Below are positions 2,193-38,784 of a DNA stretch of 64,000 nucleotides, piece after piece. A model generated the notes under the pieces. That model saw only the letters and a program-made list of their open reading frames with translations. It was not told the origin of the DNA and did not search any database. The stretch is from positions 16,567-80,566 of the forward strand of contig JBAVEL010000186.1 of NCBI GenBank assembly GCA_049587715.1, given 5' to 3'. This DNA is from Bacteroidota bacterium (GTDB taxonomy: Bacteria > Bacteroidota > Ignavibacteria > UBA10030 > UBA6906). Each line of letters starts with the position of its first letter. The stretch's first letter is position 1. Position numbers and translations under genes: made by a program.

Positions 2193-2341
2193 GATTCCGG
2201 GGTTCCTCGGGGGGAGGGATGAGGGAACGTTGCGGGTCAATATACCCAGTAGGAGCCGAAAACACAAACGGCGGGGGCTCTCCCGCCGTTTCCGGGGGTC
2301 GACCCGAACGCCCGAGGGGAGGGGGATGGGGAGAAAAGGGC

Positions 2342-2369
2342 TTGACAAACCATCCGGATATGATATATT
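2342..2369 (+). promoter_or_regulatory. Sigma70-like promoter TTGACA-N16/17-TATATT for the lacI-family/GH13 operon
   Basis: cttgacaaaccatccggatatgatatatt lies 50 bp upstream of the LacI-family start at 2418. Confidence 0.55.
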
Positions 2370-2370
2370 T

Positions 2371-2386
2371 GTGGAAGCGCTTCCAC
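2371..2386. promoter_or_regulatory. Perfect 16-bp palindrome GTGGAAGCGCTTCCAC, candidate LacI-family operator
   Basis: Perfect inverted repeat immediately after the -10 element. It sits between the divergent malK-like and lacI-family genes. Confidence 0.6.
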
Positions 2387-2417
2387 GGAAATCGGCTTTC
2401 GGGCTTCTGCACTCCGC

Positions 2418-7053: not shown

Positions 7054-7072
7054 TCTACCAAAGGAACAACTC

Positions 7073-9877: not shown

Positions 9878-9893
9878 CTCAAGGAGAACGTTC

Positions 9894-12800
9894 ATGAAGC
9901 GCCTTTCTCGATGGCTTGCAGCGGGTCTCCTGTGCCTGGCCGCCATGCCGTGGGTCTCCCCCGCACAGCACGTTCCCAGCAAGGAGCGGGTGGACGCGAG
10001 CCTCCGCCGCCGGACGGAGATTGACGGCAACAACGTCCGGACGAGCGTGTTCAATTTCGTCTTCTCGGGTCGTACGAGCGGGGATCCCAGCGCCGGGGTC
10101 CCCTACGAATGGCCCAAGAACACAAAGCGGTACTACGTGGCCCTGGTGGCCCTGTTCGTGGGAGCGGAGGTTTCGGACGACACGGGGAGAACGGTACGGA
10201 TTGTGGACCTCCCGGAGTACCGGCAGAGCCCTTCGGGGGGGAACTGGAACATGAACCCGGTCAAGGGCTACTTCAACGTGGCCCGGGGCAGGATCGCCAA
10301 GAGCGACGAGCCCGATACGTGGCCGGTGTTCTGGCCCGACAAGATGTCGGACCCCGTGGATCCCGGCTGGAGATTCGAGGGGCCCAACAACACCGACCCT
10401 GATCCGACGCGTCCCGCCTGGAACGGCTTCTTCGGGAAGGGGCAGTTCAGCGCCGACCAGGAGCTCTATGCCCGCGTGGGGGACAACAACTACGACCGCT
10501 TTAACTACTCCCCCGACACGACCGACCCGACCCGCCGGGGTCTCGGGCTGATCATTGACCAGAGGGTGCTCGCCTGGTCGCAGGCCTCGGTGGCGGACGC
10601 GGTGTTCTTCATCCACGAGGTGAAGAACGACGGGTCCAAGGACATCAAGAAGACGGCCGTCACGCTCTGGCTTGCCGACTTTGTGGGAGGAGACGGGGAC
10701 TCGCAGGACGACACCCCCGATTTCGACCTGATTCTGGATGTGGCATTCTCCCTGGATGCGGACGGCCTGAGCAGCAATCCCGCCTTCCAGGGGGCCTACG
10801 TGGGAGCGGCTGCCACTCTGTACCTGGAGACCCCCGGCAACGCAGTGGACCGGATCGACAACGACGGCGACTGCCCCGAGTTCGCCATGGGGCCGCGGGT
10901 CCTGTTCCAGACCACCCAGGGGGCCGGTCCGTTCGGGCCGGAGGTACCCGGGAACCAGCTGGATGACAACGGGAACGGGCTCATCGACGAGGACTCCACC
11001 TACATCCCCTTCGGGCAGCAGAGGGGTGTGGGCTTTGCGGACGGAATCGACAACGACGGAAACGGGGAAGCGGGCAGTCCCCTGGTCACGACGGCCATGG
11101 TCAACCAGGCCTCCTCCGATCCCTGGCAGCGCTGGCCCGCCAATCCCGAGAGCGATCCCTTCATGCAGGGCCTCATCCACCTGATTCAGGTGGGGTCGGA
11201 GGACGAGGGGGCGGCTTTCCGCGACCGCATCGACAACAACGGGGACTGCCCGGACTCGCTCCCCACGGTCACGCAGGCCATGATTGATGAGGCCGCCGGC
11301 GATCCCTTCCGACGCTACAGGGTCCCCGGCACCGGGATCATCCTCTATGACGTGGGATCGGAGGATCTGGGACGGAAATATCTCCACAGGGACAACCTGA
11401 GTGTGGCGTTCCTGGATGAAGGCATCGATGAGATGATCGACGAATCCCGGAACGACGGCATCGACAACGACGGCGACTGGGACCCCCTGCGCGACGACGT
11501 GGGGCTGGACGGGGCGCCGGGAACGGGGGATGTGGGGGAGGGGGACGGGAAACCCACTTCGGGCGTGGGAACACCCTTCCCGGGTGAGCCCAACATCGAC
11601 AAGACGGATGTCTCGGAGGCCGACCAGATCGGGCTCACGAACGTCCAGTATCTTCCGGCGGGCGCCATCAACTTTTCCACCACTCCCGACATCTTCTTCT
11701 GGGCCAGTTTCATGCTCCCGGGCAGTTTCGTGGATCCCAGTCTCATCGGCACGGGGGAGTATGACCTCTTCGTCTCCTCGGGTGTGTTCCCCATGCGGGC
11801 GGGTCAGATCGAGCGGATCTCGTATGCCGTGGTGTTCGGCGCGGCCGTGCGTCCCGGGAACGCAATGGTCTCGGGAGCCAAGGCCGACGCGCTGCGGAAG
11901 AGGGATTTCGCGGTGCTGGCCTACAGCGAGGATTACCAGTTTGCCCAGGCGCCCGTGGAGCCGACGCTTACGGCCGTGGCGGGGGACGGGAGGGTCACCC
12001 TGTACTGGGATGACCGGGCGGAATCCTCCGTGGACAGGTTCCTGGCCGGCATCCCGGGAGCCCAGGCCATGGACTTCGAGGGATACCGCATCTACAGGGC
12101 CACGGACGCGGCGTTCGAGGACGCCCGACTGATTACCGACGGATACGGCAGCCCCGCGCCCTTCCTGAAGCCGATTGCGCAGTTCGACATCAAGAACGGC
12201 ATCAAGGGATTCCACCCCACCCCGTACAACGGTGTGCAGTTCGACCTGGGGTCGGACAACGGTCTGATCCATGCCTGGACGGATTCCACCGTCCAGAACG
12301 GCCAGAGATACTACTATGCCATCCGCGCGTACGATCAGGGGTACGTGCCCCTCAGCATCAGCCCGGCGGAGAGCAACCTGAAGATCAGCATCGACAACGT
12401 GACGGGGGAGGTCACCTCGGTGGGAACCTCCATCGCCATCGTGACGCCCGAGGCGCCCGTGGCGGGCTACCTTCCCCCCGAGGTGAGTCCGATCCAGCTC
12501 GTCCGGGGGACCACCACGGGGGTTGTGGGATACACGGTGGTGGATCCCAACCTGGTGAAGGACGGACACCGCTACCGCATCACATTTGCGGACTCGGTGC
12601 TTCCGGGCTCCACCCCGACCGCTCCCGATACCTTCCGGACCACGAGCTACACGCTGGCGGATATCACGGAGGCTGCGTTTCCCGATACCCTGGTGAACCA
12701 GAAGCGGGAGCTGGCCGACACCTCGGAGCAGCCCATCGTGGACGGCTTCCAGCTCACCTTCCGGAACGAGCGCTTCTTCGGCGTGAACCCCGAGCGGTCC

Positions 12801-13628
12801 GGGTGGTCCAACGACAGCATCTGGGCCCTGGATTTCCGGCAATGGAAAGCCATCCCGTTCTTCCAGGGACTCCAGAAACCGGCCGACTATCTGCTGACCT
12901 TCGGCCCCGTGGGATCCGACACCTCCACCCAGTTCACCGTGGCGAGCGGCCCGAGCGGCACCCCGCCCGCCCGACCGGTGAACTTCCGTGTGTTCAACAC
13001 GAGCGAGAACAAACAGATTGACTTCGCCTTCCTGGAGCTGGATAACGGCGGCGGGGCGGGCCTGTTCAGCGCCCGCTACGACGCCTTCGGACGGACCATC
13101 AGCGACATCATCGTGTTTCTGGAGCGCGACGCAAGCGACAGTGTGGTGATCACCTGGAGTTTCCGGGCCGTCTTCGATTCCAGCAGCAGGCGGAGGGGCC
13201 CGCGCGACGGTGACACCGCCGTGGTGGTTCTGGCCAAGCTCTTCCGGTCCTCGGATGTATTCGAGTTTGCGACTTCGGCCCAGAGGGTGGATCCCGACAG
13301 GGCCCGGCGCGAACTGGACCGCATCAAGGTGGTGCCGAATCCCTACGTGGCGGCCGCCGCCTGGGAGGGGAGAAACCCGTTCTCCTCGGGACGCGGCCCC
13401 CGGTCGCTCCACTTCATCCACCTTCCGCAGCGGTGTACCATCAGGATCTTCACGGTGAGCGGGGAGCTTGTGTCCACGATCGAGCACGAGAGCGGGATCC
13501 TGGACGGCACGGCGGAGTGGAACCTTCTCACCCGCGACAACCTGGACGTGGCCTACGGAGTGTACATCTATCACGTGGATGCGCCGGGACTGGGGGAGAA
13601 GGTGGGCAAGTTCGCCATCATCAAGTAG
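9894..13628 (+). CDS. Large (1244 aa) secreted protein with thrombospondin-type-3-like Ca-binding DxDxDG repeats and a T9SS/FlgD-Ig-type C-terminal sorting domain
   Basis: AAGGAG RBS 8 nt upstream. Signal peptide MKRLSRWLAAGLLCLAAMPWVSPA. Repeats RIDNDGDCPE, GIDNDGNGEAG, RIDNNGDCPD, GIDNDGDWDPLRDDVGLDGAPGTGDVGEGDG. C-terminus VVPNPYV..CTIRIFTVSGELVSTIE..GVYIYHV..GKFAIIK. Confidence 0.75.
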   Translation: MKRLSRWLAAGLLCLAAMPWVSPAQHVPSKERVDASLRRRTEIDGNNVRTSVFNFVFSGRTSGDPSAGVPYEWPKNTKRYYVALVALFVGAEVSDDTGRTVRIVDLPEYRQSPSGGNWNMNPVKGYFNVARGRIAKSDEPDTWPVFWPDKMSDPVDPGWRFEGPNNTDPDPTRPAWNGFFGKGQFSADQELYARVGDNNYDRFNYSPDTTDPTRRGLGLIIDQRVLAWSQASVADAVFFIHEVKNDGSKDIKKTAVTLWLADFVGGDGDSQDDTPDFDLILDVAFSLDADGLSSNPAFQGAYVGAAATLYLETPGNAVDRIDNDGDCPEFAMGPRVLFQTTQGAGPFGPEVPGNQLDDNGNGLIDEDSTYIPFGQQRGVGFADGIDNDGNGEAGSPLVTTAMVNQASSDPWQRWPANPESDPFMQGLIHLIQVGSEDEGAAFRDRIDNNGDCPDSLPTVTQAMIDEAAGDPFRRYRVPGTGIILYDVGSEDLGRKYLHRDNLSVAFLDEGIDEMIDESRNDGIDNDGDWDPLRDDVGLDGAPGTGDVGEGDGKPTSGVGTPFPGEPNIDKTDVSEADQIGLTNVQYLPAGAINFSTTPDIFFWASFMLPGSFVDPSLIGTGEYDLFVSSGVFPMRAGQIERISYAVVFGAAVRPGNAMVSGAKADALRKRDFAVLAYSEDYQFAQAPVEPTLTAVAGDGRVTLYWDDRAESSVDRFLAGIPGAQAMDFEGYRIYRATDAAFEDARLITDGYGSPAPFLKPIAQFDIKNGIKGFHPTPYNGVQFDLGSDNGLIHAWTDSTVQNGQRYYYAIRAYDQGYVPLSISPAESNLKISIDNVTGEVTSVGTSIAIVTPEAPVAGYLPPEVSPIQLVRGTTTGVVGYTVVDPNLVKDGHRYRITFADSVLPGSTPTAPDTFRTTSYTLADITEAAFPDTLVNQKRELADTSEQPIVDGFQLTFRNERFFGVNPERSGWSNDSIWALDFRQWKAIPFFQGLQKPADYLLTFGPVGSDTSTQFTVASGPSGTPPARPVNFRVFNTSENKQIDFAFLELDNGGGAGLFSARYDAFGRTISDIIVFLERDASDSVVITWSFRAVFDSSSRRRGPRDGDTAVVVLAKLFRSSDVFEFATSAQRVDPDRARRELDRIKVVPNPYVAAAAWEGRNPFSSGRGPRSLHFIHLPQRCTIRIFTVSGELVSTIEHESGILDGTAEWNLLTRDNLDVAYGVYIYHVDAPGLGEKVGKFAIIK

Positions 13629-13678
13629 AGCCGTCCTCCCATGCGTACAACGAAAAGAATGACGGAGAGGAGAAACCC

Positions 13679-14707
13679 GTGAAACGGTCAGCCGGTTTGT
13701 TCGCCATCATCTTCCTCCTTGGTGCCGCGGCCGCCCCGGCGGCGCAGGCGCAGGAGGTCACCAAAGTCGGCACCACCTCGGCGAAGTTCCTGAGCATCCC
13801 CGTGGGTGCACGCGCGGTGGGAATGGGAGGGGCGTTTGTGGCCGTAGCCAACGATGCCTCCGCCATGTTCTGGAATCCGGCCGGGATCACGAAGATCTTC
13901 CAGGCGGAAGCCCTCTTCACCCATGCCCAGTGGCTTGCCGACATCGACTTCAACTACGGGGGGGTGGTGTTTCCCGTGGAGGGGGTGGGTGTCCTGGGCG
14001 TCAACTTCACCTCGCTGACAATGGACGAGATGGAGCGGACGACGGAACGGCAGCCCGAGGGTACGGGGGAGTTCTTCTCCGTGGGGAGCATCGCCGTGGG
14101 TGTGGCGTACGCGCGGGAGCTCACGGACTGGTTCTCCATCGGGGGAAACGCCAAGTACGTCCGGGAAAGCATCTGGAACTCCAGCGCCACCGGCTTCGCC
14201 GTGGACGTGGGAACGCTGTTCCAGACCCCCTTCTCGGGTCTCCGCTTCGGCGCCGCCATCACGAATTTCGGGACGAAGCTCCAGATGACCGGAGAAGACC
14301 TTCTGGTCCAGAAGGACATCAGCCCGAACAACGGGAACAACCCCAACGTGAACGCGGAGCTGAAAACCGACCGCTTCGACATGCCCCTGACCCTGCGGAT
14401 CGGGCTGGCCTATGAGCCGATTGCGGACGAAGACCAGCAGCTCACGATTGTGGCCGATGCGGTGCACCCCAACGACAACTCCGAGAGCATCAGCATCGGG
14501 GGAGAGTACAGCGGGTTCCGGCGGATACTCTCCATCCGCGGGGGATACCGCTCCCTGGGCCAGCTCGACGCGGAAGAGGAGTTCACCGTGGGAGGCGGAG
14601 TGCGGTACCCCGTGTCACCCGCGCTGACACTGAAGTTCGACTATGCCTTCGAGCGGTTCGGCCGGCTGGACAACGTGCACAAGTTCTCGTTCGGGATCAT
14701 GTTCTGA
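13679..14707 (+). CDS. PorV/PorQ-family outer-membrane beta-barrel (FadL-like, T9SS shuttle/anchor paralog)
   Basis: GTG start with GGAGAGGAG RBS. Signal peptide then hallmark TSAKFLSIPVGARAVGMGGAFVAVANDASAMFWNPAGI. C-terminal ...KFSFGIMF. Family assignment is from motif memory only. Confidence 0.6.
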   Translation: MKRSAGLFAIIFLLGAAAAPAAQAQEVTKVGTTSAKFLSIPVGARAVGMGGAFVAVANDASAMFWNPAGITKIFQAEALFTHAQWLADIDFNYGGVVFPVEGVGVLGVNFTSLTMDEMERTTERQPEGTGEFFSVGSIAVGVAYARELTDWFSIGGNAKYVRESIWNSSATGFAVDVGTLFQTPFSGLRFGAAITNFGTKLQMTGEDLLVQKDISPNNGNNPNVNAELKTDRFDMPLTLRIGLAYEPIADEDQQLTIVADAVHPNDNSESISIGGEYSGFRRILSIRGGYRSLGQLDAEEEFTVGGGVRYPVSPALTLKFDYAFERFGRLDNVHKFSFGIMF

Positions 14708-14762
14708 GGGGAATCCACACAAACAACGTCCGTTCACCCACAACAACAAGCAGGAGGAAGCC

Positions 14763-16664
14763 ATGAGACACCGTTGGCTCATGCATGCCGTAGCCCTGGG
14801 CGTGCTCGTCTGTCTGGCCGCGGGCCTGTCGGTCGCCCAGAACGACGCAACGTTCCAGGTCAACATGAAGATCAAGATGAAGGAGGGAACCTTCCTGCCC
14901 GGGAGCGGGGATATTGTCCGCGTCGCGGGAGGATTCAACAACTGGGGGAGCTCCACCGACACCCTGCGGGATGGGGATGGAGACAGCATCTACACCAAGA
15001 CCATCTCCCTTGCCACCGGGGCCATCCTCTACAAGTTCCTCAAGACCCCGCGGGGAGGCCTCGACTGGGAGGCGGACCCGAACCGGGAATACACGGTGGT
15101 GGCGGGATCCCAGACGATTCCCGTCGTCTATTTCGACCGCGACTCCATCTACAACCCCCCCACGGCGGACGTTCCGGTGACCTTCGGGGTGGACATGGGA
15201 GTGCTCATGTGCGAGGGGTTGTTCCTTCCGGGAAGCGGGGACATCGTGCGCGTGGCGGGGGGGTTCAACAACTGGGGTGGATCCACGGACACCCTCAAGG
15301 ATGCGGACAATGACAGCATCTACACCAAGACGATCACCCTGATGGAGAGCCAGGCCATCCGGTACAAGTTCCTGAAGACCCCCCGGGGGGGGATTGACTG
15401 GGAGGGGAACGTGAATCCCTCCGATCCCGACGGAAACCGCACCTACACCGTTCCCACCGGCGGAGGTCCCATTCCGGTCGCCTACTTCAACAACGATTCG
15501 GTCTGCAGCATCGTGGTGACCGCCAACGTCCTCTGGCAGGCGGAGATGACCCCGTACCAGCAGCTGGGGTGGTTCAACCCCGTCATCGATTCCCTACAGG
15601 TGCGGGGAGGGTTCAACTCATGGGGCGGGTCCCTCATGGACTTCGACCCGCTCACCACGGGGACCTACTTTGTGACCGTGCCCGTGACGGGCTCCGTCGG
15701 AGAGCCGGTGTTCCACAAGTACTTCATCGACCTGGACGAGGCCACGGCCGAGACCCGCTTCCCCGGATACTCGGGGGATGCGGACGGAGTCCGCTATGAG
15801 CATCCATACACCCGGGGAGACGGGAACCGGGGCTTTGCCATTCCCGGCGGCGGCAACCAGGCCACGGAGCTCTTCTGGTTCAGCGACATTCATCCGGGGG
15901 GCCTCCTGAAGAACCTCACGGACACCGTGTCGGTCACGATGCGGGTGGACATGGGGCCGGCCACGCGGGACGCCATCGCCTTCGACCCGGCGGCGGACAG
16001 CGTGCGGATCATCTTCTTCGACCGGATGTGGGTGGGGGCGCAGGCGGCCCGGCAGGGCGGGACGTCGTCGTCGTTCCCCAATATCGATCTCCTCCCCACG
16101 CCCGATCCGGCCGACACGATCTACCAGGGGACCTTCAAGGTCGTGGGGAAGGCCCACTACGGCATCCTGTACGGGTATGAGTTCCGCCAGCCCGGCGGGG
16201 CCACCTCCAGCGAGGGTGCGGGACTCGGCGCCCAGGGAGGGCGGAGGGTCCGTTTCATCCAGCCCCTGGCTCCCAACTCGTTCCCCCGGTTCTATACCGC
16301 TCCGCTGGACAGCTGGAAGAAGAACGCGCCGCTGTTCGGGGAGACTCCTCCCTACAACCCTTCAGCGGGTGTGATCGAAGATCCCACGCCGGGGGTGCCC
16401 GAGGGCTTCACCCTGGGGCAGAACTACCCCAACCCCTTCAACCCGAGCACGAAGTTCCGGTACAGCGTGCCCGAGAAGGCGCGGGTGATGCTCCGGGTGT
16501 ATGATATCCTCGGGCGTGAAGTGGCTACCCTGGTGAATCAGGAGCAGGCGGCGGGAAGCTACATTGCTCTGTTCGAGTCCAACAACCTGCCCACGGGCGT
16601 CTACTTCTACCGCCTGGAGGCGGGCAGGTTCAGCGAGACCCGGAAGATGGTGCTGCTGAGGTAG
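14763..16664 (+). CDS. Secreted protein with three tandem starch/glycogen-binding CBM-like domains (VAGGFNNWG motif) and a T9SS C-terminal sorting domain
   Basis: AGGAGGA RBS. Signal peptide MRHRWLMHAVALGVLVCLAAGLSVAQ. Repeats GDIVRVAGGFNNWG(S/G)STDTL..YKFLKTPRGG(L/I)DWE. C-terminal tail QNYPNPFNPSTKFRYSVPEKARVMLRVYDILGREVATLV..GVYFYRLEAGRFSETRKMVLLR. Confidence 0.8.
   Translation: MRHRWLMHAVALGVLVCLAAGLSVAQNDATFQVNMKIKMKEGTFLPGSGDIVRVAGGFNNWGSSTDTLRDGDGDSIYTKTISLATGAILYKFLKTPRGGLDWEADPNREYTVVAGSQTIPVVYFDRDSIYNPPTADVPVTFGVDMGVLMCEGLFLPGSGDIVRVAGGFNNWGGSTDTLKDADNDSIYTKTITLMESQAIRYKFLKTPRGGIDWEGNVNPSDPDGNRTYTVPTGGGPIPVAYFNNDSVCSIVVTANVLWQAEMTPYQQLGWFNPVIDSLQVRGGFNSWGGSLMDFDPLTTGTYFVTVPVTGSVGEPVFHKYFIDLDEATAETRFPGYSGDADGVRYEHPYTRGDGNRGFAIPGGGNQATELFWFSDIHPGGLLKNLTDTVSVTMRVDMGPATRDAIAFDPAADSVRIIFFDRMWVGAQAARQGGTSSSFPNIDLLPTPDPADTIYQGTFKVVGKAHYGILYGYEFRQPGGATSSEGAGLGAQGGRRVRFIQPLAPNSFPRFYTAPLDSWKKNAPLFGETPPYNPSAGVIEDPTPGVPEGFTLGQNYPNPFNPSTKFRYSVPEKARVMLRVYDILGREVATLVNQEQAAGSYIALFESNNLPTGVYFYRLEAGRFSETRKMVLLR
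14844..15590 (+). repeat. Intragenic tandem duplication of a CBM-like domain (two ~370-nt units with high nucleotide identity)
   Basis: Unit 1 ...ttcctgcccgggagcggggatattgtccgcgtcgcgggaggattcaacaactggggg... and unit 2 ...ttccttccgggaagcggggacatcgtgcgcgtggcgggggggttcaacaactggggt... A third more diverged unit follows. Confidence 0.6.
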
Positions 16665-16694
16665 GCCGGAGGCCCGTTCCGGGATGCCACATTC

Positions 16695-16740
16695 GGGGCC
16701 CCGGCTTCCCTTCACCGGGAGGCCGGGGCCCCCTGTTTCA
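16695..16740. terminator. GC-rich hairpin (GGGGCCCCGGC...GCCGGGGCCCC) between convergent genes
   Basis: 11-bp perfect stem followed by ctgtttc on the plus strand. Lies between the CBM gene end (16664) and the stop of the convergent SGNH/TPR gene (16738). Confidence 0.45.
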
Positions 16741-18765
16741 GGGGGGTGGGAGCCGGCCGAGGAGACCCCGTGCAAGTTCGTTCGCGGGATCCAGAGTGAG
16801 GGACTCCTCCAGGTCCCGCCGGGCTTCCGCCTGCCTCCCCTGCCGGAGCCGGGAAAGGGCCAGGAGGTACCAGGCCGAGGAATGGGCTCCGGCTCCGAAT
16901 TTCCGGGGGCCCGTGCGCTCCACCTCCAGAGCCCGCAGGATCTCCCTCTCGGCTTCAGGGCCGTTGCCCTCGTCCACCAGGATGATGGCAAGCTTCATGC
17001 GGGCGTAGGGGTTCTCCTCCACCCGGAAGCACTCCCGGTAGGCCCGCTTGGCTTCGGTGTTCAGGCCTTCGTCCCTGTAGTAGTCCGCCACTCTCAACAG
17101 GGGCTGGTAGGAGAAGGGGATGACCTTTGCCACGGCCAGGCATTCCCGGCGGGCGGGGCCGTACATCCCCCGGGCCGCGTAGCGGTCGGCCAGAAGGTAG
17201 CGCGCGTCGGACCACGCAAGGCGTCCCCGGATGTACTCGAAGGCCAGGCTGTCCAGGAATCCCGCAGGTATGAATCGGACATCGGGCGGTCCCGACGCAA
17301 ACGGCCATCGGCGCATCAACAGCTCCACGCGGATGCGTCCCACGGTCCTGTCGAAATCGGAAACCGTGGAGGATTCCATGAGCGCATCATCCCCCTTCTC
17401 TGCGGAGTCCGCCCATGCATCGGCGGGAACAAGCAGCCGGTTTCCGCGGATCGTGCGGGCCAGCACCTTTGCCATCAGGAAATAGCCGTCCACATTCGGG
17501 TGCAGGTGCTCCAGGAGGAGCTCCGATCCCGGGATGCCGCCGGGGCTCCGTCTCCGGAATGCGGAATCCACGGGCGCGAGCGGGGTGCCGGTGGCGCGGC
17601 ATATGCGCCCGAGATCATCCATGAATTCGGCGCTGGCCCGGAACCGGAGGGCGTCCAGATCCCGGGCCCGCGCGAACATCGCTTCTGCTTCCCGGTAGTC
17701 TCCCTTTCCAAAGAGCACACTGCCGGCGGCGAAGAATGCCCCCGCGTGGAGGGTATCCAGCGCGGCTGCCTGCCGGTAGCAGGCAAGGGCCGCCTCTGCA
17801 TCCGTGCGCATTTCCAGGTATGTCCCCCGCGCCATGAGGGAGTCCCACCGTCGCCGGGTTTCGTCCGGGAGCCCGGGCCCGTGCACGGCTGAAAAGGGAG
17901 CCTGGGTCCGTGTGTTGCTGACCAGGGAGCACAGGATGAGGGGGACCCCCTGGGAGCGGGCCTCCCGGATGATCATCCCCAGGTTCTCCGTGTAGATTTC
18001 CCTCGCCCTGCGGTAGAGGTCCGATCCGTACGGGATGGTCTGCTCCCGGACCACCTGTGCCATGAGGCTTCCCCGACGGGGATCGGGGGGAGGGGCCAGG
18101 CGGTCGCGCAACTCAAGGTATGCGTCCCGCGCCAGGAGGAAGGTCCGGAATCTGAGCAGAGACAGCGCCAGGCGCGCGGCCAGCCCCCCGCCGGGGATCC
18201 CCACCCGGGAGCCCACCCCGTAGGCCCCGTAGAACTCGTTGTGCCCCACATAGACGATGTAGAGGTCCGGCTGGTAGTTTCCCAGTTCCTCCAGGAAGTC
18301 CCCCACGATGAAGCTCCCGGCCGCGGAAAGCCCCGCATTCACCATCTCAACCTCGTAGCCGGGGAGGAGCGCCCTCAGCCGGTCGCGCAGGAAACCGGGG
18401 GCCGTCGCGTGGAATTCATAGGGGAAACCCGCCATCGTGGATTCGCCCAGGCAGAAGATGCGGATGGTGTTCTTCGGCTTCCGCACCCGGAAGGCGTCGT
18501 CGGCCGGTTCCGGGATGGAAGTGCCCGAACCCGCGAAGTAGCGCCGTCCCACATCCCGGTTGATCCTGAACATCTCCTCCTTGGCGATGCGGGTGCGGAC
18601 CACCAAGTCCAGGTTGCCTCCGTAGTCGATGCGGCGGAGGAACAGCTCCAGACCGGCGAGGAGCAGCCAGGGGATGACGGCCACGACGATCGTAAACAGC
18701 CGGCGACGCGCACGCGGGAGGGGGAGGGCCGGCGGGCGGACCCGGGGCTTGCGGATGCGCTTCAC
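16738..18765 (-). CDS. Membrane-anchored SGNH/GDSL-hydrolase-like domain + C-terminal TPR repeats (paralog A)
   Basis: Track ORF 16738..19176 trimmed to GTG (VKRIRKP...) that overlaps the upstream paralog's stop (GTGA). TM helix LFTIVVAVIPWLLLAGLELFL. SGNH blocks IFCLGESTMAG, VNAGLSA, VYVGHNEF, LLEHLHPN. TPR-like C-terminal half. Confidence 0.65.
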   Translation of the reverse strand: MKRIRKPRVRPPALPLPRARRRLFTIVVAVIPWLLLAGLELFLRRIDYGGNLDLVVRTRIAKEEMFRINRDVGRRYFAGSGTSIPEPADDAFRVRKPKNTIRIFCLGESTMAGFPYEFHATAPGFLRDRLRALLPGYEVEMVNAGLSAAGSFIVGDFLEELGNYQPDLYIVYVGHNEFYGAYGVGSRVGIPGGGLAARLALSLLRFRTFLLARDAYLELRDRLAPPPDPRRGSLMAQVVREQTIPYGSDLYRRAREIYTENLGMIIREARSQGVPLILCSLVSNTRTQAPFSAVHGPGLPDETRRRWDSLMARGTYLEMRTDAEAALACYRQAAALDTLHAGAFFAAGSVLFGKGDYREAEAMFARARDLDALRFRASAEFMDDLGRICRATGTPLAPVDSAFRRRSPGGIPGSELLLEHLHPNVDGYFLMAKVLARTIRGNRLLVPADAWADSAEKGDDALMESSTVSDFDRTVGRIRVELLMRRWPFASGPPDVRFIPAGFLDSLAFEYIRGRLAWSDARYLLADRYAARGMYGPARRECLAVAKVIPFSYQPLLRVADYYRDEGLNTEAKRAYRECFRVEENPYARMKLAIILVDEGNGPEAEREILRALEVERTGPRKFGAGAHSSAWYLLALSRLRQGRQAEARRDLEESLTLDPANELARGLLGRLPPP

Positions 18766-20771
18766 GGCCGCGCCTTTCCTTTGTGCTCCAGCAGACGTCG
18801 GGCAGGGGCAAAAGAGGGATCCGCCCGGAGGACCTCCTCCAGCACGGTCCGGGCCTCCGCCTCCTGCCCGCTCCGGCGGAGGGCGACTGCAAGGAGATAC
18901 CCTGTTTCCGATCTCTCCTGCTTCCGTGCAGCCAGGGGGAGGGCCGATCGCAGGTACCGGGCGGCCGAGGGCAGGTCCTGCTGTTCCAGGGCAATCCCCC
19001 CCAGCATCCGCAGGGCCGTGAACGTCTTTTCCAGGCCGAGGGACCTCTCGTAGGCCTCGCGTGCGTGCTCCAGTCTTCGCTCCTGGACGTAGACCTCGCC
19101 CAGGAGGAGATAGGGAGAGACATTGAAGGGGAATTGGTCCATGAGAACCAGGTACTCCCGGGCCGCCTTTTCCCACTCCCCCGATCGACGGTAGTGTTCC
19201 GCCATGCGCACATGGGCCCTCTCCCAGGTGAGAGCCCCCCGCACCGCTGATTCACCGATCTGAGCCAGCGCGTCCTGTGCCGGGGGAGGAGGGGCAGGGC
19301 GACCCGGCGGAACAAAGGGCCAACCCGAGGTGAGGAGCCGGATGCGGCGCCGGGCGCACCACTCGTCCAGCTCGGTCACGGCCCTGCGTTCCCAGAGCCC
19401 GTTCTCGGGTATGGTGTCCCGTTTCGCCCAGACCGCCTCGTTCTCCACGAGACCCAGCGACCTCACCGCACGGGCGAATTCGCTCCCCATCAGGAAGTAA
19501 CCCCGGAGCGTGGGGTGGAGGTGTTCCAGAATCAGCTCGCGTCCCACGATGGAATCGGGCGAGGCGGCGGCAAAGGCCTGCTCCATGTCAACCACATGCA
19601 CACCGGGTGCGCGCCGGCGGAGAAGGGCCTGGTTGAAGCCGGAACTCTGGCGGAAGCGGAGGAGGTCCAGATCCCGCGCCCTCACGTATTCGGTGCGCGC
19701 CTCGGGTATCCGGCCAAGGGAATCGAGGGCACAGGCCGCCAGAAACCGCGCTCCGGCGTGCGTGCTGTCGATGTTCCGTGCCGCGCGGAAACAATCGAGG
19801 GCGCTCTCGGGAGACGACTCCAGAAGGCGCATGAGCCCTTCGTTCAGCAGGTCGTCGAACCGGTCCTGCATGGTGCCGGAGAGGCCGGCCCGCCGTCCCG
19901 AAACAAAGGGGGGTTGGTGCCGGATATTGGATACCTGCGTGGAGAGGATGACGGGAATGCCGCTCTCCCGGCAGAGTGCAATGATGCGGTCGGTGTTCTC
20001 CAGGTAGATGGAGAGGGCCTCCTCGTAGAGGGGACCGCCGAGGGGCACCTCCTGCCCCCGGGCAAGCCGTTCCATCATGGTTCCCCCGCCCTCCCCAGTG
20101 CCTCCGCCTTCTCCCAGGCGCCCGAGCCCTCCGTAGAGATCCCGGGCGAGTTGAAACACCTTCCAGTGCACCAGCCGCAGATAGAGACGGGTCAACAAAG
20201 CCGAGCGTCCCCCCGACTCCCGCGATGCGGCTCCCAGGGCGCCGTAGAACTCGTTGTGTCCGTCGTAGACGATCACCAGATCCGGTTCCCAGGGGAAGAT
20301 CTCGTCGGCGATGTCGGCAGCGGTGACGCTGTTGGTGGCTGTCATGCCCAGGTTGATGGTCTCGATTGTCTTCTCGGGGAAGAGCGCCCTCAACCGCGTC
20401 CGCAGAAAGGTGGCGAAGGAGCCCCCGTAGCCGTAGGGGTACCCCACCGTTGTGGATCCCCCGAGGAAGAAGATGCGGAATGTCCCGGGGGCCTTGGCGG
20501 AGGGGAAAAAGTCGTGGGACGTGGTGGGGGTGAAGTCCACGCGCGAGAAGTAGCGGGCCTTCACATCGGGATTCATCACGCGGAAGTCCCTGCCGCCGGT
20601 CTGCTCCGCACGGAACAGCTCCAGGTCCGGTCCGTAGCCGGCAATGCGAAGGACGGTTTCCGCCAGCACGAGCAGCAGCAGGGGGAAGACGAGCGTGAAG
20701 ACGAGGTACGCCCGTGCGCGGGTGCGCGGGATGGGGTGGGAGGAGCTCCTGGTGCGGCTCTCTCTCTTCAT
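18762..20771 (-). CDS. Membrane-anchored SGNH/GDSL-hydrolase-like domain + C-terminal TPR repeats (paralog B)
   Basis: Track ORF 18762..21272 trimmed to MKRESRTRSS.. at 20771. TM helix AYLVFTLVFPLLLLVLAETVL. SGNH blocks IFFLGGSTTVG, INLGMTA, VYDGHNEF, ILEHLHPT. TPR-like C-terminal half. Same architecture as paralog A. Confidence 0.65.
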   Translation of the reverse strand: MKRESRTRSSSHPIPRTRARAYLVFTLVFPLLLLVLAETVLRIAGYGPDLELFRAEQTGGRDFRVMNPDVKARYFSRVDFTPTTSHDFFPSAKAPGTFRIFFLGGSTTVGYPYGYGGSFATFLRTRLRALFPEKTIETINLGMTATNSVTAADIADEIFPWEPDLVIVYDGHNEFYGALGAASRESGGRSALLTRLYLRLVHWKVFQLARDLYGGLGRLGEGGGTGEGGGTMMERLARGQEVPLGGPLYEEALSIYLENTDRIIALCRESGIPVILSTQVSNIRHQPPFVSGRRAGLSGTMQDRFDDLLNEGLMRLLESSPESALDCFRAARNIDSTHAGARFLAACALDSLGRIPEARTEYVRARDLDLLRFRQSSGFNQALLRRRAPGVHVVDMEQAFAAASPDSIVGRELILEHLHPTLRGYFLMGSEFARAVRSLGLVENEAVWAKRDTIPENGLWERRAVTELDEWCARRRIRLLTSGWPFVPPGRPAPPPPAQDALAQIGESAVRGALTWERAHVRMAEHYRRSGEWEKAAREYLVLMDQFPFNVSPYLLLGEVYVQERRLEHAREAYERSLGLEKTFTALRMLGGIALEQQDLPSAARYLRSALPLAARKQERSETGYLLAVALRRSGQEAEARTVLEEVLRADPSFAPARRLLEHKGKARP

Positions 20772-21057
20772 GCGTGCTCCGTCTTCCGGGGTGCGGAGGG
20801 CTCCTGAAGGGCCCCTTCCGTGGAGGGTCAATATAGAACCTTTGGGCTGGGATTCAACGGAAGGGCCGCCGTTCGTTGATTTTCGAGCCCTTCTTTCGTA
20901 TGTTGGGCGTGCACCGCGGCGCGAGAATCCGTCCCCCCGGCACCGTGCGCGCATGCGGTCGCCCCCCAGCCGAAGTTCTCCGAGAGGCATGCCTCCGCCG
21001 GCGTTGCCGGGATGGGCAGAAGGGGAAGAATTGCGAAACCGAGGAAGGAGCAAGACA

Positions 21058-23823
21058 ATGAAACGATGGATCCGCGCAGCATGGCTTCTTGCGGCGGGGT
21101 TCTGGACCCTGCACGCCCAGGACAGCGTGGATGTTACGTTCCGGTATGCCGTGACTCCCTTCCCGACCGGGCTGGAGGTGCGCGGGGAGGCGGACAACTG
21201 GGGAAGCCCTCCCGCCTGGCTCATGCAGTACCAGGGCGGCAACCTCTGGTCGTATACCGCCCGCCTGCGCATCGGGGGACATCAGGGGGGCGGAGTCCCC
21301 GGCGGATACCAGTACAAGTTCTGGCACAACGGCATCACGGGGAACTGGCCGAATGATCCCCTCAACCACCATGTGAATACCTCGGACAACGACAACACGG
21401 TGGTGTATGTGCGGAATCCCACCATCTATCATTTCCTTCCGAACCAGCGGAGCGGTACCGTGGGCTCGGAGTTCCCGGTGATCAGCGCGTACCTCTATCC
21501 CGCGGTGGGAAGCACCCTGGATACCGGTTCCATCACGCTCACCATCGACGGAACCCCGTACACGGGTCTCGGGAGCGGATACAACCCGGCCGCGAAGCTC
21601 TTCAGCGTCACCTCGCCGGTCTCGCTGGCCGACGGGGGCCACTCCATGATCCTCCGGGCGGGCTCGAGCGCCGATACGGTCACCTTCATCGTGCAGGTGG
21701 GGGGGCCTCCGGTGGCTCCGCTCCCCCCCTATGCCCGGCACGGTGTGACCCTCCCGCAGCAGGCCTCGAACGATTCCACCACCTTCCGTCTGCGTGTCGG
21801 GGGAACCACCTACGTGGTGCTGCGGGTGGCCCCCCTGGGCCAGCCGGTCTCCTCCGCCCCGCCGGTGTTCATGCGGAAGAACCCCTCTTCGGATGACTGG
21901 TGGCTGAACGTGAAGCTTCCCCCCGGGACCTACGAGTACCAGTACCAGACGAGCAGCGGGGCGCTCTTCAACGACCCCTGGGGGAGACACACCGGGACGT
22001 TCGGCACCCGCTTCACGGTGGGACCCGAAGGCCTGAGTGCGGATGACTACGTCTGGAGGAGCACCTCCTACACCCGCCCCCCCCTGGAGAAGCTGGTGAT
22101 CTATGAGCTGCATGTGGGGGAGTTCGCGGGGGGATTCTACGGCCTCCCCGCGGGTCAGGCGGGTTTCCCCCAGCTGACGACCCTCCTCCCGTATCTGGAT
22201 TCCCTGGGTGTGAACGCGGTGGAGCTGATGCCCATCAACGACTTCGGTCTGGTGGGTCCATCGGGCCACAGCTGGGGGTACGACCACAACTCCCACTTCG
22301 CCCTGGAGCCCTCCTACGGCTCGCCCAGGGATTTCAAGGTCTTCGTGGACTCCGCCCACGCCAGGGGGATCGCCGTCATTGTGGATATGGTGCTGAACCA
22401 CCTGAACGACACGGGTCCCCTCTGGAAGATGCAGCCGGATGTCGGTGCCAACCCGTACTTCAAGGCCTTCAACGACCTCCGCTACAACGAGGACTACTTC
22501 GAGTTGTTCAGGGACATGGACCACTGGACCGATGAAACCCAGGAATACGTCACCGAAGCCCTGAAGATGTGGATCGACCAGTACCGGGTGGACGGCTACC
22601 GGTATGACCTGACCCAGGGAATCGGCTGGAACGTGAATGAGCCCACCCGCGGCGTCCTGGGGTGGGCCAACCGGATTGCGCAGGATTACAGCGGCGCGGT
22701 GTACCAGATTGCGGAGCACCTCCCGGAAAGCCCCGCACTCATCTACTACAGCGGCCTCACCGGAGGATGGCACGACAGCTTCCGGGATGAGATCTTCGAC
22801 GAAGCGCGGTTCCGGAACACGTCTCTTCTCGATTTCGAAAACCTGATTCTGGACCTGGGGGCCTATCCGGGGAACGACACCCCTTCCCTCCCGAACCGCT
22901 ATGCGAACAGGACCGAGCCGGTCAACGCGAACGTCAACCACGACGAGCAGTCCCTCATCTATGAGATGACCACCTTCCAGGGCGTGCCCCTGCCGGAGGC
23001 GCTCGTGCGCGACCGTCTCTATGCGGTCTTCATGTTCACCTCCCTCGGCATCCCGATGCTCTGGGAGGGGATGGAGCTGAGCGCCCCCCGGGGATGGCAG
23101 AACGACGGGCAGAAGCTGAGCTACAGGCCCGTGGAGTGGAATCTGCGCCCCACCGCGCGCGGACAGGAGCACCTGGGGTACTACCGGAGTCTGATCCGCC
23201 AGCGCACGCTGAATCCCGCCCTCACGCGTGGGACCCTCCGGAAGCTTTTCCGCTACAATGCCGAGAAGGTTCTGGTGTGGGGCCTGGAAGACACCGTCTC
23301 GGGGGCGCGGGTCATGGCCGTGGCCAATCTCAGCGGCTTCCAGCGCACCGTTGCCGGAGTTCCCTGGCTCGCTCCCGGGGCGTGGTACGACATCTGGACC
23401 CAGGCCCTTTTCCAGGTTTCCTCCGTCCCTCTGGATACCATGACGCTGGCCCCCTATACGGCCCGTGTGTACTCCACCCTGAGCGACAGCATCCTGTTGC
23501 CGGTGGCGCAGGACCGGGCCGCCCTGCCCCGAGAGCCGGCCCTCCGGCAGAACTACCCCAATCCCTTCAACCCGTCCACCACCATCCTCTTCGACATCGC
23601 GGCCGCGGGCGGAGTGAAGCTGGAGGTGTTTACCGTCGCAGGGCGCCGTGTGCGGACGCTCCGGGATGGTGCTTTCCCGGCCGGGCGGTTTGCGGCTGTC
23701 TGGGACGGCACGAACGACGCCGGTGAGCCCGTCTCCAGCGGGGTCTACATCTATCGCCTGACGGCGGAAGGCGGCGGGGGGTCGCCAGCGGTCCTGACGA
23801 ACCGCATGGTGCTCTTGAGATGA
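21058..23823 (+). CDS. GH13 pullulanase/isoamylase-type alpha-glucan hydrolase with N-terminal beta-sandwich domains and T9SS C-terminal sorting domain
   Basis: RBS GGAAGGAG. Signal peptide MKRWIRAAWLLAAGFWTLHAQ. LVIYELHVGEF and AVIVDMVLNHL, GYRYDLTQ are GH13 regions. C-terminal QNYPNPFNPSTTILFDIAAAGGVKLEVFTVAGRRVRTLRDG..GVYIYRL..NRMVLLR. Track start 20644 rejected. Confidence 0.85.
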   Translation: MKRWIRAAWLLAAGFWTLHAQDSVDVTFRYAVTPFPTGLEVRGEADNWGSPPAWLMQYQGGNLWSYTARLRIGGHQGGGVPGGYQYKFWHNGITGNWPNDPLNHHVNTSDNDNTVVYVRNPTIYHFLPNQRSGTVGSEFPVISAYLYPAVGSTLDTGSITLTIDGTPYTGLGSGYNPAAKLFSVTSPVSLADGGHSMILRAGSSADTVTFIVQVGGPPVAPLPPYARHGVTLPQQASNDSTTFRLRVGGTTYVVLRVAPLGQPVSSAPPVFMRKNPSSDDWWLNVKLPPGTYEYQYQTSSGALFNDPWGRHTGTFGTRFTVGPEGLSADDYVWRSTSYTRPPLEKLVIYELHVGEFAGGFYGLPAGQAGFPQLTTLLPYLDSLGVNAVELMPINDFGLVGPSGHSWGYDHNSHFALEPSYGSPRDFKVFVDSAHARGIAVIVDMVLNHLNDTGPLWKMQPDVGANPYFKAFNDLRYNEDYFELFRDMDHWTDETQEYVTEALKMWIDQYRVDGYRYDLTQGIGWNVNEPTRGVLGWANRIAQDYSGAVYQIAEHLPESPALIYYSGLTGGWHDSFRDEIFDEARFRNTSLLDFENLILDLGAYPGNDTPSLPNRYANRTEPVNANVNHDEQSLIYEMTTFQGVPLPEALVRDRLYAVFMFTSLGIPMLWEGMELSAPRGWQNDGQKLSYRPVEWNLRPTARGQEHLGYYRSLIRQRTLNPALTRGTLRKLFRYNAEKVLVWGLEDTVSGARVMAVANLSGFQRTVAGVPWLAPGAWYDIWTQALFQVSSVPLDTMTLAPYTARVYSTLSDSILLPVAQDRAALPREPALRQNYPNPFNPSTTILFDIAAAGGVKLEVFTVAGRRVRTLRDGAFPAGRFAAVWDGTNDAGEPVSSGVYIYRLTAEGGGGSPAVLTNRMVLLR

Positions 23824-26486
23824 AACCCTCCCCGGTCGTGATGTGCCCTGGCGCGTTGCGGGCGCGCGGGGCTGCCCTTGCCGCCTTTCTTGCGATCCTG
23901 TCCTCCGGGTTCTTTCCGATCGCAGCTCAGCCGCGCCCGGCGGGGGAAGGGGTGGAGTTCTCGTTTCAGGGCTCCGGGGGGGAAACGGGCGTCTCCCTTG
24001 TGGGTGATTTCAACGGATGGTCCGGCGACGAGGATCGCCTCACCCCCGGAGAGGGAGGAATCTGGAGAATCACCCGGACGATGCGCCCCGGGGTGTACCA
24101 GTATCTGTTTCTGGTGGACGGCCGGGAATACGTCCGGGATGCCGGCAACCCCGCCTCCGTGGAGAACTACAACGCGTCCTCCCGGAACTCGGTCTTCGTC
24201 CTTACGGAGGATTTCCGTGTGCTCTTGTCCCCCTCCCGGGACCGGCCGCTTGCCAATCCCGGGGATGTCTACCCTCCGGCCCCCGATGCGGGGACGCTCT
24301 ACCTCAACATCGTGTGGCACCAGCATCAGCCCCTCTACGTCAACCCTGAAACCGACGAGCTCCGCGGTCCGTGGGTCCGCACCCATGCCACCAAGGATTA
24401 CTACGACATGGCGGCGATCCTGCGGCGCTATCCGGACATCCATTGCACCATCAACCTGACGTCTTCCCTCCTGCACCAGCTTCAGGAGTACTATGTGGAT
24501 CGGCTCCGGCCCTTTGTGGACGCGCGCGCATCCCGCGTGGATGCCTCGGGCTTCCTCGCTGCATGGAAGGGGAGAACGGATCCCTGGATCGACCTCGCTC
24601 TCACCCCCGCCGAGGAATTCCGGGGCGAACAGATCGACCTGCTCTACCGGAACGCCTGGAATGCCTTCGGGATCAGCGAGGTGCAGATCGGGCGCTTCCC
24701 CGCGTATGCCGGCCTGAAGAAACGGTGGGAGAGCGCGGGTGATTCCCTTGCGGTGTTCTCCGTGCAGGAGATGCGGGAGATCAAGTTCTGGTTCTATGCG
24801 GCGCATTTCGATCCCGACTTTCTCCGGGGTCCCGTGCCGCTCCCGGGAGGCGGCCTCTGCAATCTGAGCGACGTGGTGGAGGAGAGATCGGACGGCACGT
24901 TCCACGTCCGGGTGCCCGTCACGGAGGACCTGTGCAACCGGATGGTGGCCGAAGCGTGGAAGGTTATGGCAGCCGTGGTGCCGGTGCACCGGGAGCTCAT
25001 GGGCGCTCCGGGGAGAATGGACGGGCAGATCGAGGTCATCACTACTCCCTTCTATCATCCGATTCTCCCTCTGGTGTACGATTCCGACCTGGCGCGCATC
25101 TGCCAGGGCGATGACGTCCTGCCTCCCCGGTTCTCGTACCCGGCCGACGCGGACGCGCAGGTGGAGAAGGCGGTCCGGATGTACCGGTCGCTCTTCGGCG
25201 CACCCCCCCTGGGCATGTGGCCCGGGGAGGGGGCTCTGGCCCAGGAGGTGCTTGGCATCCTGGCGCGGCACGGGATCCTCTGGACCGCCACGGACGTGAA
25301 GGTGCTCCAGCGCTCCGAGCCCTCCGGCCGGCCCAACACCACGCCGTACGGATTTTCCGCGTCCGCGGGGAGGGAAGACGGAACGGGAAAGACGGTCGCC
25401 GTGGTCTTCCGGGATACCGATCTCTCCGACAGGATCGGGTTCAAGTACCAGAACGAAACGGGCGAGGAGGCGGCGGAGGACTTTGTCCGTTCGCTTCTCT
25501 CCATGGCGCCCCGCAGGGGAGGGGAGGACGTGCTCATCACGGTCATCCTGGACGGGGAGAACGCCTGGGAGTGGTACCGGAAGGACAACGACGGAAAGCA
25601 GTTCCTGAACGCCTTCTACAGGAAGCTGAGCGTTCTCCACGCCGGGCGGCGGATTGTCACCGTCACGACGGCCGAGTATCTGGGGGGGAATCCGGCCCGC
25701 GGAGTGCCTCCCCACCCCCTGGAACGGCTGCCCCGCATGGACCGGCTCTGGCCCGGATCCTGGATCAACGCAAACTACGACACCTGGGTGGGGGAGCCGG
25801 AGGAGAACCGTGCCTGGGAGTACCTTCTCCGCGCGCGGCAGGATCTGGAGCTGTCGGGACTTCCGCAACCCGACCCCTCCGCCTCTCCTCCCGGGCAGGG
25901 AACCCCTGCCTGGCACGCCTACCGGGCATGGGAGGCGATGTACGCAGCCGAGGGTTCCGACTGGTTCTGGTGGTACGGGGCGGATCAGACCGCCCCCGCG
26001 GGAGAACAGCCGTTCGATGACGCATTCCGCACGCACCTGGAGAACGTGTACCGGTTTGCCGCCCTGGCCGGGTCGGCCATCCGGTCGCCGGGCTTCGATC
26101 CCGTGATCCGGCAGGGACACCATTCCGCGCCCGGACAGGGGGCCATGGCCCGCAGCACGAGGATGGTCCGGTTCGTCTGCGATGTGCGCGCGGTGGAAGT
26201 CCCGACGGCCGTCTACATTGTGGGGAACAGAGACGACCTGGGTGCATGGACCCCCAACGCCGTCGCCATGCGGGATGACGGCAGCGGGGGGGATGCAGTT
26301 GCGGGAGACGGCTTCTGGACCCTCGAGATATCCGTTCCCCTTGGAGAGGGGGTCGAGTACAAGTACACGAACAGCGGCGCGCGGGGACAGTGGGTCCCCG
26401 GCGAGGAATTCCCCTCCCGGCACCGGTCGGTCGTGGTTGCCCCGGGAGACGGGGTGCAGATCGTTCAGGACGTTTTCGGGAAGTAA
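23820..26486 (+). CDS. GH57-family alpha-glucan-active enzyme with N-terminal CBM48-like and C-terminal CBM20-like domains
   Basis: ATGA overlap with the upstream stop. Signal-like N-terminus. GDFNGWSGDE..YQYLFLVDGREY is an AMPK-beta/CBM48-like module. NIVWHQHQPLYV is the GH57 signature. C-terminal VYIVGNRDDLGAWTPNAVAM..EYKYT is starch-binding-like. Confidence 0.8.
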   Translation: MKPSPVVMCPGALRARGAALAAFLAILSSGFFPIAAQPRPAGEGVEFSFQGSGGETGVSLVGDFNGWSGDEDRLTPGEGGIWRITRTMRPGVYQYLFLVDGREYVRDAGNPASVENYNASSRNSVFVLTEDFRVLLSPSRDRPLANPGDVYPPAPDAGTLYLNIVWHQHQPLYVNPETDELRGPWVRTHATKDYYDMAAILRRYPDIHCTINLTSSLLHQLQEYYVDRLRPFVDARASRVDASGFLAAWKGRTDPWIDLALTPAEEFRGEQIDLLYRNAWNAFGISEVQIGRFPAYAGLKKRWESAGDSLAVFSVQEMREIKFWFYAAHFDPDFLRGPVPLPGGGLCNLSDVVEERSDGTFHVRVPVTEDLCNRMVAEAWKVMAAVVPVHRELMGAPGRMDGQIEVITTPFYHPILPLVYDSDLARICQGDDVLPPRFSYPADADAQVEKAVRMYRSLFGAPPLGMWPGEGALAQEVLGILARHGILWTATDVKVLQRSEPSGRPNTTPYGFSASAGREDGTGKTVAVVFRDTDLSDRIGFKYQNETGEEAAEDFVRSLLSMAPRRGGEDVLITVILDGENAWEWYRKDNDGKQFLNAFYRKLSVLHAGRRIVTVTTAEYLGGNPARGVPPHPLERLPRMDRLWPGSWINANYDTWVGEPEENRAWEYLLRARQDLELSGLPQPDPSASPPGQGTPAWHAYRAWEAMYAAEGSDWFWWYGADQTAPAGEQPFDDAFRTHLENVYRFAALAGSAIRSPGFDPVIRQGHHSAPGQGAMARSTRMVRFVCDVRAVEVPTAVYIVGNRDDLGAWTPNAVAMRDDGSGGDAVAGDGFWTLEISVPLGEGVEYKYTNSGARGQWVPGEEFPSRHRSVVVAPGDGVQIVQDVFGK

Positions 26487-38025: not shown

Positions 38026-38048
38026 CGCGAGTCTCCGTCAGATTCCGA

Positions 38049-38077
38049 TTTGACTTTCCCCCGCGATGAACGTATAT
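38049..38077 (+). promoter_or_regulatory. Sigma70-like promoter TTGACT-N17-TATATT facing away from the transposase start
   Basis: ttgactttcccccgcgatgaacgtatatt lies immediately upstream (on the plus strand) of a structured ~190-nt region ending in an intrinsic terminator. Confidence 0.5.
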
Positions 38078-38084
38078 TAGGTCA

Positions 38085-38656: not shown

Positions 38657-38683
38657 GTTTAGGTTCTCCTATTAGCCGGGTAT

Positions 38684-38712: not shown

Positions 38713-38748
38713 GCCCACCACGGTCCGCATTTTAGGCTTCCTATGGAC

Positions 38749-38776: not shown

Positions 38777-38784
38777 GTGGTTGC

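Follow-up and report, generated by a model that had tools for sequence, protein, structure and literature searches.

A 64-kb stretch of contig JBAVEL010000186.1 (assembly GCA_049587715.1, positions 16,567 to 80,566), called the window here, was found to encode two starch-related proteins whose C-terminal ends are confirmed, by family models, as type A sorting tails of the secretion system known as type IX (T9SS). One is a non-catalytic protein made of tandem carbohydrate-binding modules (CBMs) and the other is a glycoside hydrolase of family GH13; they are referred to below as the CBM and GH13 cargo proteins. Their genes belong to a conserved alpha-glucan (starch/glycogen) utilization locus, carried by an uncultured bacterium that is Ignavibacteria-like and falls in the Bacteroidota/Fibrobacteres–Chlorobi–Bacteroidetes (FCB) group. 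Both proteins are likely to be exported parts of this locus, acting at the cell surface or outside the cell and delivered by way of their C-terminal domains (CTDs). A first-pass annotation had placed the pair correctly, as position 14763 is the ATG of the CBM gene and position 23823 ends the stop codon of the GH13 gene. The two genes and their domains are as follows.

14763-16664, plus strand: CBM-only cargo, 633 aa
14841-15497, plus strand: CBM20-like modules D1 (aa 27-125) and D2 (aa 136-245)
15513-16352, plus strand: divergent modules D3 (aa 251-380) and D4 (aa 388-530), beta-sandwiches
16425-16661, plus strand: type A T9SS CTD of the CBM protein (TIGR04183, PF18962, fold match to 8qb1)
21058-23823, plus strand: GH13 cargo, 921 aa
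22075-23157, plus strand: GH13 catalytic domain, with D443/N447/H448, R515-D517 (nucleophile), E553-H554 (acid/base) and H628-D629
23533-23820, plus strand: type A CTD of the GH13 protein, a longer-loop variant (TIGR04183, FlgD_ig, hhalign)

Both proteins end in the motif series QNYPNPFNPST...GVY.YRL...(K/R)MVLLR, which runs to the last residue. On TIGR04183 (cut-off 23 bits) the CBM tail scored 42.9-44.4 bits, with E 1.2e-11 at 44.4 bits, and the GH13 tail 31.4 bits (E 1.4e-7). The CBM tail also passed Pfam PF18962 with 35.7-37.3 bits against a cut-off of 27. Its fold is a seven-strand beta-sandwich like those of solved CTDs and matches the mirolase CTD, 8qb1. Comparison of the two tail families with hhalign gave 100% probability (E 3e-51, 43% identity), and a hidden Markov model (HMM) of the family CTD matched just these two open reading frames (ORFs) in the window. 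At the other end of the proteins, MRHRWLMHAVALGVLVCLAAGLSVA|Q and MKRWIRAAWLLAAGFWTLHA|Q were taken, from direct reading, as Sec signal peptides. The first-pass annotation had proposed T9SS tails on both proteins, and the models bear this out; the tail motif that it quoted is present, as are its CBM repeats, with VRVAGGFNNWG occurring twice and a degenerate third copy reading VRGGFNSWG.

The tails are conserved across the families of both proteins. At least 186 homologues of the CBM protein were found in metagenome-assembled genomes (MAGs) labeled Ignavibacteria, Ignavibacteriae or Bacteroidota, nearly all of them combining CBM20 with a Por tail. The GH13 protein has about 1300 relatives, and nearly all of the best 120 carry Por_Secre_tail and/or FlgD_ig tails. 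Each of the two cargo proteins has homologues with CTDs in the hundreds, from Ignavibacteria, Calditrichia and MAGs filed as 'Bacteroidota'. The QNYPNPFNPST variant of the tail occurs in Ignavibacteria, Calditrichia, KSB1, Gemmatimonadota, Balneolaceae and Rhodothermaceae, where it is 45-61% identical over about 90 aa (loci L003-L082). About 160 ORFs matched the tails in the roughly 1.3 Mb of fetched loci, and when a genome collection was scanned with the CBM alignment, most of what came back were unrelated CTD proteins that shared the motif QN[YF]PNPFN. Tagging of carbohydrate-active enzymes (CAZymes) and CBM proteins with CTDs is a known hallmark of FCB bacteria, and both proteins are already so named in NCBI, which makes the finding itself an ordinary one. 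The CBM protein is identical to MGA9117601.1, 'MAG: T9SS type A sorting domain-containing protein [Bacteroidota bacterium]', and the GH13 protein to an entry named 'alpha-amylase family glycosyl hydrolase'.

The CBM protein consists of a signal peptide, four CBM20-like modules, a linker and the type A CTD, and has no catalytic domain. It passed the Pfam CBM_20 cut-off, and four beta-sandwich modules can be seen in its predicted model. At 67% identity to each other, D1 and D2 retain the site-1 residues that are canonical for CBM20 (W61/K91/W102/N107 in D1 and W171/K202/W213/N225 in D2), which align with the starch-binding domain of Aspergillus niger glucoamylase. Among 36 homologues, W61, K91 and W102 of D1 and all four residues of D2 are 90-100% conserved, while N107 of D1 falls below 90%. 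D3 and D4 are more distant, with 24-30% identity to the first two modules. The protein is thus assigned to CBM20 by HMM, fold and binding-site residues, in agreement with the earlier description of a tandem-CBM protein without an enzyme domain, and it is predicted to bind starch.

In the GH13 cargo the signal peptide is followed by N-terminal beta-sandwich domains, the catalytic domain (PF00128, 64 bits) and the CTD. The conserved GH13 regions read DMVLNH, GYRYD(517), AE(553)H and NHD(629). In 30 homologues D443, H448, R515, D517, E553, H554, H628 and D629 are invariant and N447 is at least 90% conserved; D517 aligns with the residue changed to alanine in 8xxa. The catalytic residues are therefore intact as judged from the alignment, and activity on starch is predicted.

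The specificity of this enzyme had been given in the first-pass annotation as that of a pullulanase or isoamylase. The protein does belong to the part of GH13 that is associated with CBM48, and TreZ, GlgX, GlgB and pulA models match it partially. All of the debranching models, nevertheless, were far from their cut-offs (pulA_typeI 69 bits against 504.5, pullulan_Gpos 30 against 1042, GlgX 85 against 640.9). When the family profile was compared with the PDB, the best match was 8xx9, which we take to be a Rhodothermus marinus enzyme (182 bits, E 1e-52), followed by 8dge/8dl1 (164 bits, with E 3e-47 for 8dl1). The pullulanase 2wan (117 bits) and TreZ (110 bits) came next, so that the alpha-amylases were ahead of the pullulanases by 47-65 bits, and a single-sequence search likewise returned the alpha-amylases 8xx9 and 8dge/8dl1 as the nearest solved structures. 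8DL1 is BoGH13ASus of Bacteroides ovatus (PDB 8DGE/8DL1). Subfamily GH13_47 holds BoGH13ASus and an alpha-amylase of Rhodothermus marinus, both said to tolerate alpha-1,6 linkages (PMC11239784), and this tolerance leaves some room for a debranching function. Because the debranching models scored far below their cut-offs and the nearest structures are alpha-amylases, a debranching enzyme is improbable and the pullulanase-type label was dropped. The cargo is best described as a GH13_47-like alpha-amylase, a placement judged from the nearest solved structures. It shares conserved regions with BoGH13ASus and 8xx9, including region IV of the SHDEQ type. BoGH13ASus is a lipoprotein of a SusC/D polysaccharide utilization locus (PUL) and the outer-surface amylase of the B. 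ovatus starch PUL, whereas the present enzyme has a CTD and different N-terminal domains.

The remaining genes of the starch locus are listed below, those with Pfam matches being marked.

1089-2765, minus strand: MalK ATPase (Pfam match)
2418-3491, plus strand: LacI (Pfam match)
3488-5380, plus strand: second GH13 alpha-amylase, with signal peptide and no CTD, probably periplasmic
5377-7053, plus strand: SurA-like double-parvulin peptidyl-prolyl isomerase (PPIase)
7073-9877, plus strand: TonB-dependent receptor (CarboxypepD_reg, Plug, barrel), not of the SusC class
9894-13628, plus strand: protein X, 1244 aa
13679-14707, plus strand: outer-membrane barrel of the PorV/PorQ family, 14-strand type, 342 aa
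16738-18762 and 18762-20771, minus strand: tandem GDSL/SGNH plus TPR paralogues, membrane-anchored, between both cargo genes
23820-26486, plus strand: GH57 enzyme with CBM48-like and CBM20 modules, signal peptide and no CTD
listed after the GH57 gene: hDGE-like protein
28419-29669, plus strand: solute-binding protein (Pfam match)
29721-30617 and 30639-31472, plus strand: two putative permease ORFs of a maltodextrin-type ATP-binding cassette (ABC) importer, called by position
minus strand, in the starch locus: GDE-type enzyme

The permease call for the ORFs at 29721-30617 and 30639-31472 rests on their position and on a BPD_transp_1 gene that follows the solute-binding protein gene in the related locus L001. 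The genes from the GH13 at 3488 through the PPIase, receptor, X and barrel to the CBM protein overlap or are separated by at most 55 nt; this stretch therefore looks like an operon, of which the CBM gene is the last member. The order GH13, PPIase, receptor, X, PorV-like barrel, CBM-CTD, ..., GH13-CTD, solute-binding protein, permease is also found in L001, where the CBM protein is 52% identical. It recurs too in ENA contigs, in one MAG labeled Marinimicrobia and in three loci of the genome collection. The SurA-like PPIase is kept directly upstream of the receptor in several relatives. In Flavobacterium johnsoniae, SprA is known to bind a PPIase. The GDSL-TPR paralogues are 37% identical to each other, and the stop of one overlaps the start of the other by one base. 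Such genes recur in related loci, one in L001 and two in L088, the recurrences including a non-starch locus.

The relation of this locus to the starch utilization systems (Sus) of Bacteroides was considered next to its gene content. No SusD family match was obtained in any locus ORF scanned. The receptor scored 89.4 bits on the SusC model TIGR04056, against a cut-off of 368, and over its N-terminal part only. By reading the sequences, no canonical lipobox was found in either cargo protein. The earlier statement that starch handling here is not organized by a Sus-type lipoprotein system holds in these respects. It does not hold for the overall plan: the conserved operon is centered on a TonB-dependent receptor, and the system is not independent of Sus-like logic. 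The resemblance extends to SusE/SusF of Bacteroides, which like the CBM protein are non-catalytic, consist of tandem starch-binding beta-sandwiches and are encoded near an outer-membrane transporter. SusE and SusF are lipoproteins with CBM families of their own, whereas the CBM protein has four CBM20-like modules, a T9SS tail and no lipobox; no sequence homology between them was detected, and SusE/F were not among its best structural matches. The locus provides a clean example of a Sus-like starch system outside Bacteroidia that has neither SusD nor lipoproteins.

The barrel gene starts with GTG after GGAGAGGAG and lies between X and the CBM gene, immediately upstream of the latter. Its product was placed in the PorV/PorQ family by NF033709 (228.7 bits, cut-off 90), and it is no equivalog of any member tried (PorV 76 bits against 250, PorQ 90 against 220, PorV2 89 against 325). 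Its best PDB match was F. johnsoniae PorV, 6h3i_F (E 2e-9). The set of PPIase, receptor and PorV-like barrel was also considered as BAM-related (BamG, FadL-like); as the BamG model scored just 26.5 bits against a cut-off of 250, this was set aside. Barrel and receptor also adjoin in loci from Balneola (L081), Rhodohalobacter (L061) and Calditrichia (L012).

Precedents for T9SS delivery of such proteins exist. Secretion of amylases by the T9SS has been established experimentally in F. johnsoniae (PMC11885536), and in Melioribacter, CAZymes carrying both CBMs and Por tails have been on record since 2013 (PMC3534657). The F. johnsoniae alpha-amylases and the Melioribacter roseus CAZymes share with the present pair an N-terminal Sec signal and a C-terminal TIGR04183 domain on starch-active and CBM-bearing proteins. 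The present case differs in coming from an uncultured lineage with 65% GC, in that the machinery is known in the window from one barrel, and in its QNYPNPFNPST tail, the variant typical of non-Bacteroidia FCB bacteria (Ignavibacteria, Calditrichia and others).

Several observations weigh against T9SS export. The GH13 tail scored 18.4 bits on PF18962, below the cut-off of 27, and higher on FlgD_ig (41.6 bits). The signal peptides were assigned by eye. None of the T9SS core genes (PorK/L/M/N, Sov/SprA, PorU) was found in the 64-kb window, only the PorV/PorQ-family barrel. Moreover, SprA, PorV and Plug were the only components that a BLAST survey reported for Ignavibacterium and Melioribacter (PMC11705866), and because of this the canonical motor, ring and sortase may be absent from the lineage or divergent beyond recognition. 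A look for SprA in the fetched loci, at ORFs of more than 1500 aa, led to two that were tested, both of them large CTD cargo proteins and not SprA.

The FlgD_ig score and the lack of core genes in the window would also fit beta-sandwich tails of a general Ig-like or FlgD-like kind that serve in adhesion or structure, on proteins that stay in the periplasm. This is highly improbable. Both tails pass TIGR04183, stand at the extreme C-terminus with the YPNPF, GVY.YRL and K/R-M-x-L-L-K/R motifs and are homologous to each other, and the fold of the CBM tail is that of a solved T9SS CTD. Such a tail is absent from the GH13 at 3488-5380 and from the GH57, the periplasmic enzymes encoded in this locus, and a binder of starch granules would be of little use in the periplasm.

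The gene survey bears on a second alternative, that CTD export in this lineage is reduced and non-canonical. It would use a SprA-type translocon and PorV-family barrels only, with no PorK/L/M/N ring or motor and no attachment by PorU to anionic lipopolysaccharide (A-LPS), and the cargo would be released or held non-covalently by a barrel. Besides the restricted gene set of Ignavibacterium and Melioribacter, the locus-specific PorV/PorQ-family barrel encoded beside the cargo speaks for it. Uncleaved CTDs are retained by cognate PorV-like barrels in the pairs PorZ-PorQ and SprB-SprF (PMC10202324; PMC9143113), and release, with no anchoring, is the fate of many T9SS substrates (PMC10202324). Nevertheless, the survey used BLAST with Flavobacterium queries and may have missed divergent PorK/L/M/N, and the present MAG lies outside the surveyed genera. 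We regard a reduced route as possible and on the whole doubtful.

Export through a T9SS-type route is thus kept as the preferred reading, and a pathway consistent with the gene content can be proposed. Sec would take both cargo proteins into the periplasm, where the type A CTD would be recognized by a T9SS-type outer-membrane translocon (SprA/Sov and a PorV-type shuttle). Once at the surface, the proteins could be anchored covalently, retained by a PorV-like barrel or released. Outside the cell the protein with four CBM20 modules would capture starch as a functional analog of SusE/SusF, and the GH13_47-like alpha-amylase would cut it to maltooligosaccharides, as a functional analog of SusG/BoGH13ASus. 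The products may then be taken up by the TonB-dependent receptor of the same operon and trimmed in the periplasm by the GH13 and GH57 enzymes that lack CTDs. The MalEFGK-type ABC system, controlled by LacI, is predicted to import the trimmed products.

Protein X, encoded between the receptor and the barrel, has no Pfam domain, and nothing usable was found for it in Pfam or NCBIfam or by sequence against the PDB. The traces obtained were weak matches to PorZ/PorU tails, a sub-threshold CHU_C match and a marginal Fn3-like segment. It is a secreted, nearly all-beta protein with Asp/Asn/Gly-rich motifs resembling calcium sites and a divergent CTD-like end domain; the predicted model is almost all-beta as well (pLDDT, the predicted local distance difference test, 77). 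The tail, VVPNPY...GKFAIIK, is strongly conserved and related to the CTD of the GH13 family (94.9% probability, E 4e-8). Overall the C-terminal two-thirds of X are conserved and the N-terminal third is variable. Among 1.84 billion cluster representatives searched with HMMER, 4298 were related at E <= 1e-3; 544 of these reached E <= 1e-30 and are clusters at 50% identity that carry no family annotation. Homologues of X are named only 'hypothetical', and its identity (60-75%) is above that of its neighbors.

The flanks of X were the same in ten independent contexts, with a receptor of the same class upstream and a PorV/FadL-like barrel downstream. The nearby cargo varies: CBM20-CTD plus GH13 in the starch loci, CBM9-CTD plus GH3 in L057, CBM9-CTD plus GH26-CTD in L087 and CBM9-CTD plus FG-GAP/ASPIC proteins in L088. 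In the PorZ-PorQ and SprB-SprF pairs a CTD protein is held by a cognate PorV-like barrel encoded nearby. X is neither PorZ nor SprB, the barrel falls below the PorV and PorQ equivalog cut-offs, and the pair sits within glycan-uptake operons beside a TonB-dependent receptor. By analogy with these two systems, we infer that X may be a CTD-exported surface protein that is kept by its cognate barrel and works with the receptor.

These observations lead to a wider and tentative proposal, which we hold to be plausible and short of probable. The locus might represent a previously undescribed, SusD-less type of PUL that is widespread in Ignavibacteria-like and other non-Bacteroidia FCB bacteria and has as its core a CarboxypepD_reg receptor, X and a PorV/FadL-like barrel. 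X (about 1100-1250 aa across loci) would contain a galactose-mutarotase-like beta-supersandwich, calcium-site-like motifs and a divergent PorZ-like CTD. It would be exported by its CTD, held by the barrel as PorZ is by PorQ, and serve as the glycan-binding partner of the receptor in place of SusD. An interchangeable set of CTD-tagged CBM and GH proteins would set the substrate, with CBM20 plus GH13 for starch, CBM9 plus GH26 for mannan, and CBM9 plus GH3. The conserved triad of receptor, X and PorV-like barrel could matter more than the sorting tails from which the analysis started. Should X prove to be a T9SS-delivered partner of TonB-dependent transporters, environmental FCB bacteria would have a second general way of building a glycan-uptake system, and the prediction of PULs in MAGs, which now relies on SusC/SusD pairs, would be improved.

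Both cargo genes are preceded by strong Shine-Dalgarno sequences, AGGAGG in the case of the CBM gene ATG. Such strong use of Shine-Dalgarno sites in this organism is unlike the habit of Bacteroidia. The view that the promoters look sigma70-like and not Bacteroides-like found no statistical support, as the scans for both promoter types were at or under expectation: sigma-70-like sites numbered 2 in positions 5000-24500 (2.4 expected), and the Bacteroides -7 motif TAnnTTTG occurred once in the window (3.7 expected), neither being enriched.

A glutamine directly follows the apparent signal-peptidase site (A|Q) in the ORFs starting at 9894, 13679, 14763, 21058 and 23820. This pattern in five secreted proteins fits the 'Q-rule' of Bacteroidetes (PMC5837995).

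Farther along the window, an IS1/IS481-like transposase ORF (37186-38025, minus strand) adjoins a 2-kb stretch (about 38000-40000) with a GC content of 51%, compared with about 65%, and this stretch is probably an insertion. A GWxTD-domain protein (40722-42326, plus strand; TIGR04514, 65.8 bits) is encoded upstream of genes for lipid A and lipopolysaccharide (LPS), namely an LpxL-like protein and a heptosyltransferase, with MsbA further on.

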